From Planctomycetota bacterium (GTDB lineage Bacteria; Planctomycetota; SZUA-567; H5-PLA8), in the NCBI GenBank assembly GCA_038227875.1, contig JBBRPR010000066.1, positions 1-45,213 on the forward strand: a stretch of 45,213 bases of DNA. Direction: 5' to 3'. Shown in pieces: positions 21,027 through 26,612 of the stretch (positions are counted from its first letter, which is position 1; each line of letters opens with the position of its first letter). The notes beneath the pieces are model-generated. The model had not been told where the DNA came from, made no database searches, and saw nothing but the letters and a program-made list of their open reading frames with translations. The translations under genes and the position numbers were made by a program.

Positions 21027-22031
21027 TCACTTCCAGCTCAACGCCACTTCCGGATCCACGTTTCCGCCGCTGACGATCAGGATCACGTCGCCCGGGTCGT
21101 CGGGGTCGGAGAGGATCGCGCCGCTCTGCCATGCGGCGACGGCGACGGCGCCGGAGGGCTCGACAAGGATCTTCATTTCGCGCATCAGGTAATTCAGCGC
21201 GGAGACGACCGCGGCGTCGCTGACGGTCACGATGCCCTGGATGCATTGCTGCAGAATCGGGAAGGTCAGTTCGCCGGGAGTCGTGGACTTCAATCCGTCG
21301 CAGAGCGTTGCAGGCAGATCGATCGCCACGCGTTGTCCGGCGGCGAAGGATTGCTGCGTGTCGTTGCCGGCTTCCGGTTCGACGCCGAGAATCGTGCCGG
21401 AAAAGCCGCGTGCGCGGAGCGCCGCGGACGTTCCGGCCATCAGCCCGCCGCCACCGACAGGACAGGCCACCGCGTAGAGCTTGCGGGTCTTGGTGGGAAT
21501 CGCCATCCACTGGTCCATCACTTCCAGGCCGATCGTGCCCTGTCCGGTGATGATGCGCGCGTCGTCGTAGCTGGGCAGCACGGCGCGGCCTGAAGACTCG
21601 CCGAGCTCGTACGCTTTGGCTTTGCGCTCGTCGACGGTGTGGCCGCAGGTCACGATCTCGGCGCCGAGCTTCTCCATTGACGCGAGCTTCACCGGGTTGG
21701 CGTCTTCGGGGACGACGACCGTACATGGGTATGGTGCGCCCGTTTCTTTGATTCCCAGATCGCGCGACGCGTAGGCGACGGCGGCGCCGTGGTTGCCGGA
21801 ACTGAAGGCGATTACGCCGCGCGCGCGGGCTTCGGGCTCCAGCGAGGTGATGGCGTTGAAGGCACCGCGGACTTTGAACGAGCCGGTCTTCTGCAGGTTC
21901 TCCGGCTTCAGGAAGACGCGCCGGCCGTCGCGTTCAAGCTCTTCTGCGCGCAGCAGCGGCGTGGTGAAGATGTGGGGCTTAATGCGTTGCTGAGCTGCAC
22001 GGAGGTCGTCGCCGGTAGGCTTCCACGTCAT
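21027..22031 (-). CDS. PLP-dependent threonine/serine dehydratase (serine racemase-like), no regulatory domain
   Basis: KPENLQKTGSFKVRGA, SSGNHG, PVGGGGL, VEPSGA, SGGNVD. Confidence 0.9.
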   Translation of the reverse strand: MTWKPTGDDLRAAQQRIKPHIFTTPLLRAEELERDGRRVFLKPENLQKTGSFKVRGAFNAITSLEPEARARGVIAFSSGNHGAAVAYASRDLGIKETGAPYPCTVVVPEDANPVKLASMEKLGAEIVTCGHTVDERKAKAYELGESSGRAVLPSYDDARIITGQGTIGLEVMDQWMAIPTKTRKLYAVACPVGGGGLMAGTSAALRARGFSGTILGVEPEAGNDTQQSFAAGQRVAIDLPATLCDGLKSTTPGELTFPILQQCIQGIVTVSDAAVVSALNYLMREMKILVEPSGAVAVAAWQSGAILSDPDDPGDVILIVSGGNVDPEVALSWK

Positions 22032-22451
22032 GATAAACTCCAAATTGGCAGGGTGGGAGAACGAAGTAATGCTTCTACCACAGAGAGCCAAAGGGCATCA
22101 AGTCACACGTGCAATCTTGGAGTGAGAATACCCATTCGAGACAGCCGCGGAGTGCGGGTAGAGGGCCGAAAGCGATTCCCCGTGTATAAATTCATGAATC
22201 CATCGAATCCGGCGCGAACGGCAAGACCTTTGCTTTCTTATTTTAGTGTAGTGCAAATCCTTCCGGCGCGAGTCGGGTTGAGTCCTTCAACTTGATTCAG
22301 ACCGCATCCCCGCAAGAGTCCCCACCTCAGCGCTCGAGGGCTACCCAGCCAACGAGCGCTTCCTTTTTAACTGAACACATTCTGCACGAGGCATACGGCG
22401 GGATTTAGGCTACGGATTTCAGCCAACGCTTGACTGAAAATGGATCGCCCT

Positions 22452-23186: not shown

Positions 23187-23213
23187 AAGCCCCTCGACTC
23201 GATCGATGACCCG

Positions 23214-23323
23214 AGTGTAGTGCCCCCAGTGCCCCCCCTGATTGAAGTTCTTGCTTGGTGCCTTCGGCCGTGCTCTTCGTTGCCCCGGCGCTAAAACTTC
23301 AATCAGTGTGGGGCACTACACTA
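23214..23323. mobile_element. MITE-like element of about 110 bp with terminal inverted repeats
   Basis: AGTGTAGTGCCC...TGATTGAAGTT / AACTTCAATCA...GGGCACTACACT(AG). Confidence 0.55.
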
Positions 23324-23349
23324 GCGTCAATTGCTGCACTGGTCAAAAT

Positions 23350-23377
23350 GACCTCCGGGCCACGTGGCCCGGAGGTC
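23350..23377 (-). terminator. Perfect 28-bp palindrome; possible minus-strand terminator
   Basis: GACCTCCGGGCCAC/GTGGCCCGGAGGTC followed by ATTTT on the minus strand. Confidence 0.55.
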
Positions 23378-23435
23378 TCCCTGTAACATTTGGGGTGACT
23401 TGCACGGGTTGAGGTACCACGGTTCTTCATAGGAG

Positions 23436-23463
23436 AATGTTACAAAATGTTACAGAATGTTAC
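23436..23463. repeat. AATGTTAC x3 with 10-bp period; inverted copy at 23383-23390
   Basis: aatgttac-aa-aatgttac-ag-aatgttac. Confidence 0.7.
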
Positions 23464-23810
23464 GTATTTCCGGGGTTCGGTTATTTTCCGTACAAAAACA
23501 TTGTTGTACGAGCGGGTCCGGTTTTAGATCTCAGGCAGAACCACGAAGCCATACAGAAAGGCACTGCTGACGACGGGACCGAGACGCGGTCGGGCCGGGG
23601 TTAGGGTGACGAATTCGCATGTCAAAGATTAGGACGACATCAATAAATGACAATATACCTTACAATGGGTTTTGGCAAGAATGATTTAGGAATAATGATG
23701 AGAATTTGCGCAAGACGCTTCAGCACGACGATTGAATGCACGGAATGGATACGACTGTTCGCGAGAGCTTCGAAGTCGGATGAACGTACGGCAGGGGTGA
23801 TTCTGTCCTG

Positions 23811-23865
23811 GAGCTTCTTGTTGCTGACGCAACCCGGCCCGAGGGGCCGGGCCACCCCTCGCGGG
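23811..23865. repeat. REP-like element, copy 1
   Basis: GAGCTTCTTGTT, hairpin CCCGGCCC/GGGCCGGG, then CCACCCCTCGCGGG; related copy at 28234-28299. Confidence 0.65.
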
Positions 23866-23905
23866 TTTGGGTTCGATTTCAATGATTCATGACTCAATGA
23901 CTGTG

Positions 23906-23936
23906 GGGCGAGCGCCGATCTCCGGCGCTCGCCCCC
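23906..23936 (-). terminator. Hairpin downstream of the slipin gene
   Basis: GGGGCGAGCGCCG...CGGCGCTCGCCCC; no strong U-tract. Confidence 0.45.
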
Positions 23937-23957
23937 GATTCCCGATTCCCGCCACCG

Positions 23958-25082
23958 TTAGAGCAACTTGATGATCTGGTCGGCCAAACCCTTCTCGCCG
24001 ATCACGACCTTCAGGTTTGCCTTCGCGGTGACTTTCTCGAGTACTTCCAGTTCGCGGAGGCGCATCAGCGTCGGGTTGTTCTCGAGAATCTTGGCGGTGT
24101 TGGCCTGCATCCGCATCGCCGCCGTCTCTTCGCGGCGGACGATCAACGCAGCCTCGGCCGCCTTCTTGGCTTCGGTGACCTTGTTCATCAGGTCCTTCAT
24201 GTCGCCCGGCAGGATGATGTCGCGAATACCCAGCGACAGCACCTCAAGGCCGAATTCCGCCGCGCGCTTCTTGAGGATTCCTTCCAGGCCCGCCGCGACC
24301 GCATCCTTTTCGGCCAGCAACGCATCCAGCTCTCGGGTGCCGATAACGGCCCGGAGTGCGAGCTGCGCTTCGCGGTACAACGCCTGACGGTAATCGTCGA
24401 TCACCGTGATCGCCTTCAACGCGTCGGCGACGCGGTACGTGACAACGGCGTTCAGGCGGAGCGTGACCTTGTCGCCGGTCATGATCTCCTGACCCGAGAC
24501 GTCGGCCGTCTGCTCGCGCAGATCCACCGTGTGGATCTTGATCTTCGCCACGCCCTTCCAGAACGCGTGCGGTCCCGGACGCAGTTCAGTCTGGAACTCA
24601 CCGTCCTTGAAGTACATGCCGACCGATCCCGGCTCGACGGTGTAGACCTCGAGCAACTCCGCGCCCGTGCCCTGCGCGAGGATGTTCAGGTCGATGCGCT
24701 GGAAACGCGGCTCGCGGACGTCGAGCACTTCCGTGCGGACGGTGCGGAACGGCGTCCAGAGTGCATACAAGCCCGGCTTGAGGATCGCGTTGAAGCGGTT
24801 ATCGATCCAGACCAGCGCACGCTGCTCGTCCTTCAAATCCAGGACGAGCGCCTGATCCTGGAGCGCGCCGGACTTGACGATGACGTCGAGGTCCTTGTGC
24901 TTCAGCCACGGATCGCGCAGCGAAACGACGTCAACGCGGATCTTCTGGGACGGATCGAAGAACCAGTGGCGGCCGGCCGTGAGGATGACCTTGAATTCAT
25001 TCTCACGGAAGAGCAAACCACGCTCGTGTTCACCGATGGTGATGCGGCGCATACCGAACATCAATCCCGAGGTCATAACCAT
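23958..25082 (-). CDS. Slipin / SPFH (band 7) family protein, long form with repeated N-terminal beta domains
   Basis: GQEIMTGDKVTLRLN, QLALRAVIGTRELDALL, ANTAKILENNPTLMRLRELE. Confidence 0.9.
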   Translation of the reverse strand: MVMTSGLMFGMRRITIGEHERGLLFRENEFKVILTAGRHWFFDPSQKIRVDVVSLRDPWLKHKDLDVIVKSGALQDQALVLDLKDEQRALVWIDNRFNAILKPGLYALWTPFRTVRTEVLDVREPRFQRIDLNILAQGTGAELLEVYTVEPGSVGMYFKDGEFQTELRPGPHAFWKGVAKIKIHTVDLREQTADVSGQEIMTGDKVTLRLNAVVTYRVADALKAITVIDDYRQALYREAQLALRAVIGTRELDALLAEKDAVAAGLEGILKKRAAEFGLEVLSLGIRDIILPGDMKDLMNKVTEAKKAAEAALIVRREETAAMRMQANTAKILENNPTLMRLRELEVLEKVTAKANLKVVIGEKGLADQIIKLL

Positions 25083-25167
25083 GTTTCACCTGCGCTTTCT
25101 GCGCTACCTTGCGTTCAAAAACGCGTTCAAACCGAACGCGACAAATCAAATTCGAAAAACAGGTCTT

Positions 25168-25401
25168 CGGAGATGGAACGAGCGTGGCCACATGCGGCAA
25201 CGCGGAGCACAACTTGAGTTCCCGCCGACTCCGCCGTCCGCGCGCAGCAGTCGATGCTGGCCGAAGCCATCGACTGCTGCGCGCCTCGCGGCGTTTGGGC
25301 TGAAACTGAATCCGCGTACTGCATAGCGCCGCCGAATGCTGCCGAAGAAGAATCCATGGAGGCCTTCTTCTGTGGCCGGACACATCAGCGTTCCATCTCC
25401 G
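25168..25401 (-). ncRNA. Candidate structured ncRNA of about 234 nt
   Basis: Perfect 13-bp closing stem CGGAGATGGAACG/CGTTCCATCTCCG, inner GGCCACA/TGTGGCC stem, perfect 17-bp hairpin at 25240-25284, GAAGAA/TTCTTC hairpin; begins 9 nt after the tRNA CCA. Confidence 0.65.
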
Positions 25402-25410
25402 TTGACCCCT

Positions 25411-25485
25411 TGGTGGGAATGACGGGAGTCGAACCCGTGACAGCCAGGTTATTAGTCTGGTGCTCTACCATTGAGCTACATTTCC
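25411..25485 (-). tRNA. tRNA-like gene with anticodon AAT (nominally Ile), atypical
   Basis: GGAAATG TA GCTC AATGGTA GAGC A CCAGA CTAATAA CCTGG CTGTC ACGGG TTCGACT CCCGT CATTCCC A CCA; A3:C70 and A31:C39 mismatches. Confidence 0.88.
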
Positions 25486-25516
25486 GGAATGCGAAGCTCC
25501 GTCGTCAGAACCCGTT

Positions 25517-25600
25517 CACGGAACACGCGCTGCCAACTACGGTGAGTAGGGCATGGCGAGCCGCCGGCTTGGAGTACTTCGCACCGCTTGGTGTTCCGCG
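25517..25600 (-). ncRNA. Candidate small structured RNA of about 84 nt
   Basis: Closing stem CGCGGAACAC/GTGTTCCGTG with a G-U pair on the minus strand; internal hairpin TGCCCTAC...GTAGTTGGCA. Confidence 0.45.
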
Positions 25601-25633
25601 CAAATTTCAGCGCGGAACGAATCGATTAACGGA

Positions 25634-25779
25634 GTCATTGGTCATTGGGCATTGGTCATCGGTCATTTTTCATTTACGAGGGGCGTTGTGTCGGATCGAT
25701 TGGCCCGTCTTCCGCTCTCCGTAAATGACCGATGAAAAATGACCAATGACCAATGACCAATGACCAATGCCCAATGACT
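25634..25779. repeat. Inverted arrays of TGGTCAT/ATGACCA heptamers forming a long hairpin
   Basis: gtcattggtcattgggcattggtcatcggtcatt ... aatgaccaatgaccaatgaccaatgaccaatgcccaatgac. Confidence 0.8.
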
Positions 25780-25787
25780 CTGTTTCT

Positions 25788-26333
25788 TCACTTTCGCAGC
25801 GCGTCCCATTCCGTGCGCAGCATGCCCATCGCGTAGGCGTCCCAGTATCGCCCCTCGCGGTAGACTTCCTGGCGCAGGACGCCTTCGCGTTTGAATCCGA
25901 CCTTCTCGTACGTGCGGACGGCGCGCGGGTTGTACTCGTAGACGCGCAGGCTGATGCGGTTGAGGTTCAGCGTCTGGAAGCCGTAGTCCACGATCAGCCG
26001 CGTGGCTTCCGTGCCGTAGCCCTTGTTCCACTCGTCCTTGGCACCGATGCTGATGCCGAACAGCGCGTGCCGGTCTTTCGGGGCGCGGAGATGCAAGTCC
26101 GTCGCACCGATCAGCCGGTCGTTCTCCCTCAGCGCAATGCCGAGACAGATTTCGTTCTCGTTGGTGCCCGGCGTGGCGATGAACTTTTCGACGCTCTCCA
26201 GCCCCAGCGGGCGATAGACCATCAGCGTGCGATTGACATCCGGATCGTTGATGTACGCCTTGAGCACCGGCGCGTCCTCGCGCTCGAGGACCCTTAAGTA
26301 AACTTTCTCACCGATCAAAAATGGCGTCTTCAT
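25788..26333 (-). CDS. GNAT acetyltransferase, RimJ/RimL type
   Basis: EWNKGYGTEA, LNLNRISLRVYEYNPRAVRTYEKVGFKREG; ATG after GAGGAG. Confidence 0.9.
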   Translation of the reverse strand: MKTPFLIGEKVYLRVLEREDAPVLKAYINDPDVNRTLMVYRPLGLESVEKFIATPGTNENEICLGIALRENDRLIGATDLHLRAPKDRHALFGISIGAKDEWNKGYGTEATRLIVDYGFQTLNLNRISLRVYEYNPRAVRTYEKVGFKREGVLRQEVYREGRYWDAYAMGMLRTEWDALRK

Positions 26334-26358: not shown

Positions 26359-26398
26359 AAAAAAAAAACCTTCCGGGGCTTTGCGGCACCCGGAAGGT
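26359..26398 (-). terminator. Intrinsic terminator of an attenuator in the GNAT leader
   Basis: ACCTTCCGGG-tgccgcaaagc-CCCGGAAGGT followed by a T run, 25 nt before the GNAT start. Confidence 0.85.
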
Positions 26399-26430
26399 CA
26401 TGGACTGCTGAGTTACAGTGCCAAGCTCTT

Positions 26431-26556
26431 CTAGGGTGCCGCCTTTCCGGCCTGATCGCCGGTACCGTTGACGTCTGCGTCATTCGACAACATCGCCGCT
26501 CCGGTTTGCACCGGGATGGGGGACAGCGATTCGAGGTTGTGTTTCCAATGACTCAC
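26431..26556 (-). CDS. Putative leader peptide, 41 aa: MSHWKHNLESLSPIPVQTGAAMLSNDADVNGTGDQAGKAAP
   Basis: AAGGAG then GTG (12-nt spacing; internal ATG alternative); last codons GCGGCACCC are complementary to GGGTGCCGC in the terminator. Confidence 0.6.
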   Translation of the reverse strand: MSHWKHNLESLSPIPVQTGAAMLSNDADVNGTGDQAGKAAP

Positions 26557-26580
26557 GTAAAGGCAAAGCTCCTTTGGTAG

Positions 26581-26612
26581 GACAACTAACCCTGTTGCGG
26601 GTGGGTTGTCAA
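26581..26612 (-). promoter_or_regulatory. Sigma70-like promoter overlapped by an inverted repeat
   Basis: TTGACA (26612-26607), 17 nt, TTAGTT; GACAAC..ACCC/GGGT..GTTGTC dyad. Confidence 0.55.

Follow-up and report, generated by a model that had tools for sequence, protein, structure and literature searches.

A conserved slipin-linked RNA element of Planctomycetota as the 3' domain of a larger unit with a tRNA-like module, and its predicted place in translation stress

Between a tRNA-like gene and a slipin gene on a contig of a Planctomycetota bacterium (JBBRPR010000066.1, assembly GCA_038227875.1) lies a stretch of DNA that folds into several stems, which raises the question of whether it encodes an RNA of its own, a part of a larger one, or a control element of the gene that follows. 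The whole stretch analyzed, 45,213 nucleotides in length, is referred to here as the window. An earlier note had described the element as a multi-stem RNA of about 234 nt, and its measurements were reproduced: the perfect 13-bp terminal stem pairs 25168-25180 with 25389-25401, the perfect 17-bp inverted repeat pairs 25240-25256 with 25268-25284, 9 nt separate the element from the CCA of the tRNA, and the slipin ATG (25082) lies 85 nt away. Helices of 7 bp are present in the folds of the element on both strands. When compared with shuffled sequences the folding reached a z of -6.67 on the plus strand and -5.60 on the minus strand, none of 200 shuffles being as good on either one; the sense strand is the minus strand, shared with the tRNA-like gene and slipin. 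A real, conserved structure is thus present, but the limits given to it were too narrow, since the terminal helix runs on past a 3x3 internal loop to 25407/25162.

The earlier note could not assign the element to a known class, and Rfam, at both the gathering and the E-value thresholds, yields only tRNA at the window, and nothing beyond tRNA passes when six further loci are included. Weak matches to gabT, permuted tmRNA and snoRNA models all fall far under the cut-off, and none of the ribozyme families of Rfam is matched by the window, self-cleaving ones included.

A MITE, a REP-like repeat or a chance fold of GC-rich DNA would account for the terminal inverted repeat, and a genuine dispersed repeat does lie 45 nt upstream of the conserved unit; nevertheless we assign this explanation a negligible probability. 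The 9.3-Mb genome holds one copy of the element (next match E 0.15 by blastn and 0.48 by nhmmer), against 152 nhmmer matches obtained in that search for the adjacent repeat, and we therefore conclude that it is not a MITE; many dispersed copies, which the earlier note had named as a finding that would speak against its reading, were not seen. Its position is moreover conserved, with compensatory changes across phyla. The adjacent repeat (25628-25784) is itself palindromic, made of 7-nt units, and is located between the GNAT gene and the RNA.

The element is neither free-standing nor preceded by an ordinary tRNA, as had been supposed; what was taken for a tRNA is itself one module of a conserved unit to which the element also belongs. 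In the window this unit, of about 422 nt, occupies 25583-25162 on the minus strand. A 5' stem module is followed in it by a tRNA-like module, of which the family has one or two, and by a 3' domain, the last and largest part, which corresponds to the element (Table 1). Loci of slipin relatives were fetched (the best 80 of 253, plus loci from 40 related genomes) and 14 of 94 were dropped as duplicates, as a fragment or for too little upstream DNA. The unit profile matched more than 330 nt in 71 of 80 upstream regions, a count that includes the 15 loci that seeded the profile and some loci without the 3' core. The unit is mostly 480-580 nt long in the homologs, because of their longer variable arms.

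Table 1. Coordinates of the features discussed (positions in the window unless a contig is named).
Feature	Position	Strand	Remark
Conserved core of the 3' domain	25186..25343	-	Stacked short helices, near-invariant loop bases
Near-invariant loop bases in the core	25326-25322, 25312-25306, 25218-25214, 25205-25203	-	At least 95% conserved in 99 sequences, these partly chosen by the core motif itself
3' domain, ends corrected	25162..25407	-	Terminal helix with 3x3 loop, three-way junction, conserved core, two variable arms
Perfect 17-bp hairpin, variable distal arm	25240..25284	-	Not conserved as such
Variable side arm at three-way junction	25344..25373	-	Conserved at base only
tRNA-like module (called tRNA-Ile AAT)	25411..25485	-	Corresponds to predicted b7a-tRNA
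5' module, a closed multi-stem whose internal loops are conserved	25490..25583	-	15-pair covariation analysis
Terminator-like hairpin between RNA and slipin	25122..25140	-	Local, not a family feature
Slipin (SPFH/Band-7) gene	23958..25082	-	Pfam Band_7 1.1e-33
GNAT acetyltransferase gene (first in the predicted operon)	25788..26333	-	Inside tRNA array in three relatives
Predicted ribosome-sensing attenuator	26359..26493	-	Leader ORF and terminator hairpin
Leader ORF, 20 codons, ending Pro-TAG	26493-26431	-	Part of predicted attenuator
Terminator hairpin with T-run	26397-26359	-	33 nt after the Pro-TAG of the leader
TTGACA box	26612-26607	-	Upstream of leader ORF
Attenuator copies	window 26359-26612 (-); C25 ~22020-22330 (-); C16 ~53930-54200 (+)		Pro-TAG ORF pattern

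In order to evaluate the fold of the 3' domain we used a structure-blind alignment of 26 sequences, from whose own rows a structure of 47 pairs was drawn using RNAalifold; 91.6% of the cells are paired and 37 pairs show two-sided changes, a result reached by 0 of 500 shuffles, slid pairings giving 34-43%. A tree-based count over 73 other sequences, outside the alignment yet in many cases seen earlier in the profile work and partly selected by motif, returned 106 independent compensatory events at the 47 pairs versus 6-12 when the pairs were slid. Taking all 99 sequences together, 13 of the 47 pairs are individually supported at p < 0.01. In an alignment of 24 newly found matches that was fitted to the core model, pairing holds in 91.5% of the cells and two-sided changes are seen at 11 of 22 pairs. 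On the opposing side, an all-against-all covariation analysis with a tree-based null gave just three significant pairs, none of them in the flagged domain. For the 5' module, 42 sequences supported 15 pairs with 93.5% of cells paired (slid controls 26-48%), 10 of them with two-sided changes. Compensatory changes among homologs, which the earlier note had proposed to look for, were thus found, and by this comparison the fold is kept by them across phyla.

The conserved portion of the 3' domain comprises the terminal helix, the three-way junction and a compact core whose loop bases hardly vary; the covariance model (R1) was built for this core only. The eye-catching 17-bp hairpin, perfect in the window, belongs to a variable arm and lacks conservation: nine of the 17 pairs lie in shared columns, where they are 24-71% paired and none is significantly compensated. 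A scan of the unit for pseudoknots, cross-module pairings and alternative pairings returned none with covariation support.

The tRNA-like module of the window has six of seven acceptor pairs and a CCA, together with mismatches A3:C70 and A31:C39 and an AAT triplet. We parsed it in 58 of 59 homologous loci, approximately where the loops are irregular: 51 of the 58 have at most five contiguous acceptor pairs, CCA is in place in 13, and the anticodon position holds 30 different triplets. Most of the family thus lacks the 7-bp acceptor and the CCA of a functional tRNA, the anticodon is not conserved, and the module is, judging from these sequences, a mimic and not a decoding tRNA. The same figures bear on the proposal, corresponding to the processed slipin partner of the earlier note, that RNase P and RNase Z-type enzymes process the module and release the 3' domain as an RNA of ~246 nt, which we regard as quite unlikely: the acceptor stem and CCA of the window module would suit it, as would the closing helix that each flanking module has of its own, but accurate processing normally requires a full-length acceptor-T helix and the acceptor stems and CCA counts of the homologs do not offer it. 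A tandem pair of tRNA-like modules is found in L006 (3485-3632), L048, L087 and L088; the leading module of L006 and L048 is complete in its acceptor stem and CCA, and the one after it is truncated. Of these types the window retains only the first, more complete one, and most other loci only the second.

We then considered how strictly the RNA accompanies slipin. The core model matched 11 of 41 related genomes, precisely the 11 with a close slipin and each time just upstream of it, nine of these 11 having been in the seed of the model. In a survey of 151 genomes of the phylum, with 17 candidates scored per genome, the core was present in 15, always upstream of slipin, and these are exactly the 15 best of 27 slipin matches; no core match was obtained in the 124 phylum genomes without slipin. 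An RNA-first pattern scan of metagenomes gave at least 119 stretches, of which 80 were fetched and 23 confirmed as copies; slipin lies 200-513 nt downstream in 21 of these, the other two being at contig ends, and no slipin was present in the remaining 57 fetched loci. One of these 57, L170 (~1180-1640), holds a broken copy that ends after the first half of the core, and the 933 nt downstream contain no slipin.

The core was not significantly matched at 13 loci with distant slipins (12 of the 27 phylum slipins and one relative), nine of which keep an upstream tRNA-like unit, so slipin can lack the 3' domain; this and the broken copy count against reading the RNA as a slipin partner. On the other hand it is present beside slipins of only 36% identity on low-GC contigs, among which L176, L183 and L195 combine the 3' core and two tRNA-like arms with a different 5' part. 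Eleven of 21 selected loci were matched, including records titled Desulfobacterota, and ten were not, among them five titled Acidobacteriota; the core also occurs in contigs from viral collections.

This distribution bears on the possibility that the RNA acts alone in a stress tRNA operon, being catalytic, tRNA-binding or an RNA-only assembly similar to GOLLD or ROOL, with slipin merely co-regulated. Near-invariant unpaired bases in a compact core would fit such an activity, and the location in tRNA arrays with embedded tRNA-like units resembles what is described for GOLLD (PMC12286853). We nevertheless judge it distinctly unlikely, as Rfam offers no ribozyme, GOLLD or ROOL match, the scan for pseudoknots and cross-module pairing gave none with covariation support, and an intact copy away from slipin is absent from the 41 and 151 genomes and the 80 metagenome loci.

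A constant place upstream of one gene is equally expected of a cis-regulator, which weighs against reading the RNA as a slipin partner. The RNA could be a cis-acting leader of the slipin mRNA, that is, an autoregulatory slipin site or a stabilizing or processing element that sets slipin output; it is always on the same strand, upstream of slipin and in one copy per genome, and in the window a terminator-like hairpin follows it. A U-rich tail past the terminal helix, seen in 24 of 68 loci versus 3 of 133 control windows, may be counted for such a leader and fits a defined 3' end. The cis-regulator option raised in the earlier note is however less likely, since a conserved terminator and a fixed spacing to slipin are both missing: a terminator hairpin occurs in just 5 of 68 RNA-slipin spacers, and the spacing varies from 41 to 516 nt in the homologs, reaching 1.1-1.7 kb in L021, G171 and G098, with unrelated ORFs or repeats inserted in some loci. 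In addition the operon already carries an upstream attenuator (see below), and alternative pairing has no covariation support. The varied spacing, inserted ORFs, few terminators and U-rich tail favor a self-contained RNA over a switch, and the leader of the slipin mRNA is in our view unlikely. An ORF of the type found in 23S rRNA intervening sequences (four-helix bundle) lies on the opposite strand between RNA and slipin in L046, L071 and L077, and also nearby in L017.

As for the protein, the slipin model (pLDDT 83) has three SPFH1-like beta repeats in tandem, followed by an SPFH2 domain and a coiled coil; a transmembrane helix is missing from the sequence (best 19-residue hydropathy 1.18). 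Its relatives P0002, P0045, P0055, P0066 and others, of 430-890 residues, have several matched stretches, consistent with more than three N-terminal repeats. The order of beta repeats, SPFH shoulder and coiled coil recalls the vault particle, formed by the major vault protein (MVP) and vault RNA, and MVP aligns to slipin residues 3-350 with a Z of 11-12 (rmsd 6-9 Å over 220-262 residues). The best fold match is nonetheless stomatin, which together with other SPFH proteins outscores MVP, and the isolated repeats fit SPFH1 (Z about 6) better than the MVP repeats (Z 3.0-3.6, weak); the N-terminal repeats have no Foldseek match at E 0.001 and no sequence match in the PDB. SPFH1 domains may touch membranes, which together with the weak fit to vault repeats speaks against the slipin-partner reading.

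Three copies of slipin were predicted to pack side by side with a score of 0.58, the best control giving 0.00; the runs shared at least 48% of contacts at a pLDDT of at least 77. Of 30 solved pairs 20 attain the mark used for self-association, as does 1 of 23 single chains; that slipin passes it may come from its likeness to solved SPFH rings.

The genomic surroundings were also analyzed. In the window the GNAT gene, the tRNA-like gene, the element and the Band-7 (slipin) gene follow each other on the minus strand. The unit sits in tRNA arrays or in rtc (RNA repair) operons: in 41 of 61 loci its 5' module comes after a tRNA gene, and 32 of 64 have at least five tRNAs upstream. Within ~4 kb of 71 loci, HNH genes are found at 25 and RtcB, RtcA, RtcR or TROVE at 13, with RtcB adjoining seven and TROVE one. 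That RNA-repair genes are present at only these 13 loci, and not at that of the window, weighs against the slipin-partner reading; in this genome RtcB is encoded on four other contigs. One of its contigs (C59, 20085-29279, L285) carries rtcR divergent from Ro60/TROVE, followed by rtcB and rtcA, and as no RNA was found by an Rfam scan of this rtcR/Ro60 locus, a divergent Y RNA may be missed there. Another (C25, 15917-21842, L284) holds an array of 30 tRNA genes among which a gene for an RNA ligase (PF09414) is embedded; in relatives GNAT, the RNA and slipin are also part of the corresponding array, and the operon therefore seems to be split in this genome.

Upstream of the GNAT gene we found a predicted attenuator, in which an ORF ending in Pro-TAG precedes by 28-33 nt a CCTTCC...GGAAGG terminator with a T-run. 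Three of five matches to this pattern in the genome are attenuator copies, situated before GNAT, before the tRNA array of C25 and before an ABC transporter-DUF1854 gene pair on C16. For the window leader an antiterminator is predicted as the fold of the free RNA (-49.7 kcal/mol), and with the stop codon masked the terminator forms instead (-32.4 kcal/mol); the other two copies adopt the terminator in both folds, with no predicted switch, which counts against the slipin-partner reading. The same hairpin heads the tRNA array that holds RNA and slipin in all seven same-family relatives, with a Pro-TAG leader 29-31 nt ahead of it in five of them, while two loci of another family are without the hairpin and have rtcA downstream.

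A parallel exists in Anabaena, where slipin, rtcB, HNH, GNATs and the tRNA array are described as co-repressed by TrcR (PMC10272220) and the array as induced by translation inhibitors (PMC8421152). Together with an ABC transporter these genes are reported to be under one repressor, to respond to translation stress, and to rise together, the array being otherwise silent, upon translation block or TrcR deletion (PMC8421152, PMC10272220, PMC9938897). Control there is exerted by a DNA-binding repressor, whereas here a leader-peptide attenuator is predicted, and the accessible text of the same three reports mentions no comparable RNA for Anabaena. From the tRNA arrays, the shared attenuator and the Anabaena parallel we infer that the RNA is a member of a translation-stress operon.

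With moderate confidence, then, we read the element as the 3' domain of an RNA that mimics tRNA and would act together with a slipin oligomer during translation stress, its expression and binding being predicted. The earlier suggestion of a new non-coding RNA, or slipin partner, is supported in this by covariation and tight slipin linkage, but not as an entity separate from the tRNA-like module. The three-module structure would likely be transcribed as one non-coding RNA and likely bind an oligomer of the slipin encoded just downstream, producing an RNA-protein particle. Ribosomes stalled on the leader ORF would let transcription pass the terminator, so that the particle is predicted to form when ribosomes stall, aiding tRNA protection or repair. 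Nucleases or ligases that act on tRNA might be met by the elbow and anticodon arm of the tRNA-like module, which would serve as their decoy or landing pad; slipin, or a partner, may bind at the invariant core of the 3' domain, and slipin would form a ring or cage as other SPFH proteins do.

A broader version of this reading, which we regard as tentative and rather doubtful, would see in these loci a widespread bacterial ribonucleoprotein: a modular RNA of ~420-560 nt that includes a tRNA decoy and has a core invariant across phyla, with slipin binding or enclosing it as a ring or cage. Such a particle would be the bacterial equivalent of the vault, induced upon ribosome stalling along with silent tRNA arrays by the Pro-stop attenuator.

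Part of the locus has a precedent. The tRNA-like part and the Band-7 gene are already in print as the predicted b7a-tRNA, a tRNA-like ncRNA beside Band-7 genes in rtcB neighborhoods, presented there as not validated (10.1101/312249). Both share a tRNA-like ncRNA adjoining a Band-7 gene, and RtcB, RtcA or RtcR lie near part of our family. Here however it is one module of a larger unit with conserved 5' and 3' domains, which the accessible part of 10.1101/312249 does not mention, and most copies are in tRNA arrays, the window locus being without rtcB. As far as our literature search reached, most subscription journals lying outside it, there is no account of the 5' or 3' flanking domains, and to that extent the large modular RNA is new.

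In Pelobacter carbinolicus a mutant tRNA (Pcar_R0061) precedes the stomatin-like Pcar_2837, rtcA1 and rtcB (PMC3543383); likewise a tRNA look-alike that cannot be charged stands before a stomatin-like gene, in that case in an rtcR-controlled operon. This layout is matched by L001 and L005, both with the 3' core, whereas the available text of PMC3543383 describes the tRNA-like part only. An SPFH gene is also reported within a Pseudomonas rtc locus (PMC13086221).

YrlA, a bacterial Y RNA that accompanies Ro60 (Rsr), is similar in joining a tRNA-mimic domain to a second structured domain in RNA-repair neighborhoods, and offers a model for the mode of action as a tether between a ring protein and an enzyme (10.1101/312249). 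In our family the partner gene is slipin, TROVE is near a single locus of the 71, and there is no Rfam match beyond tRNA. The slipin-linked RNA is also several times larger than YrlA. Identity with a Y RNA was rejected: Rfam includes Y RNA models and passes tRNA only at the window and six further loci, and Ro60/TROVE is not adjacent, Ro being on another contig in this genome.

GOLLD and ROOL resemble the unit as large structured RNAs near tRNA clusters, sometimes with tRNA units inside and with a conserved 3' region (PMC12286853). They differ in that our unit shows no Rfam match, no pseudoknot was found in it, and it is strictly linked to one protein gene; identity with them was discarded because their Rfam covariance models were unmatched at the window and six further loci. 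A T-box or riboswitch leader was likewise set aside on the basis of the 5 of 68 spacers with a terminator, the spacing of 41-516 nt and the lack of an Rfam match. The match to tmRNA is partial (20.6 bits against a cut-off of 47) and a separate tmRNA is encoded in the genome; in a test for a tag ORF, domain lengths were spread evenly over the three frames (36/28/35). Resemblances to the tRNA-binding bulge of a T-box and to SAM-I, cobalamin and RNase P motifs were dropped as well, since they have no Rfam support and the bases involved pair within the core.

RNA-repair operons and silent tRNA arrays are known in bacteria, and for the RNA that accompanies their Band-7 protein, the predicted b7a-tRNA, the present analysis supplies predicted ends, three modules, a fold backed by covariation with an invariant core that can be mutated, and a predicted inducing signal. 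It thereby becomes testable whether bacteria contain a particle built of RNA and an SPFH protein, a type of protein known for scaffolding membranes; cultured hosts with the locus are represented by L030, L051 and L068.

Finally, the non-coding region that follows slipin in the window (23200-23957) holds more dispersed repeats (100 nhmmer matches), and its 10-nt tandem units recur before rtcB on contig C59.
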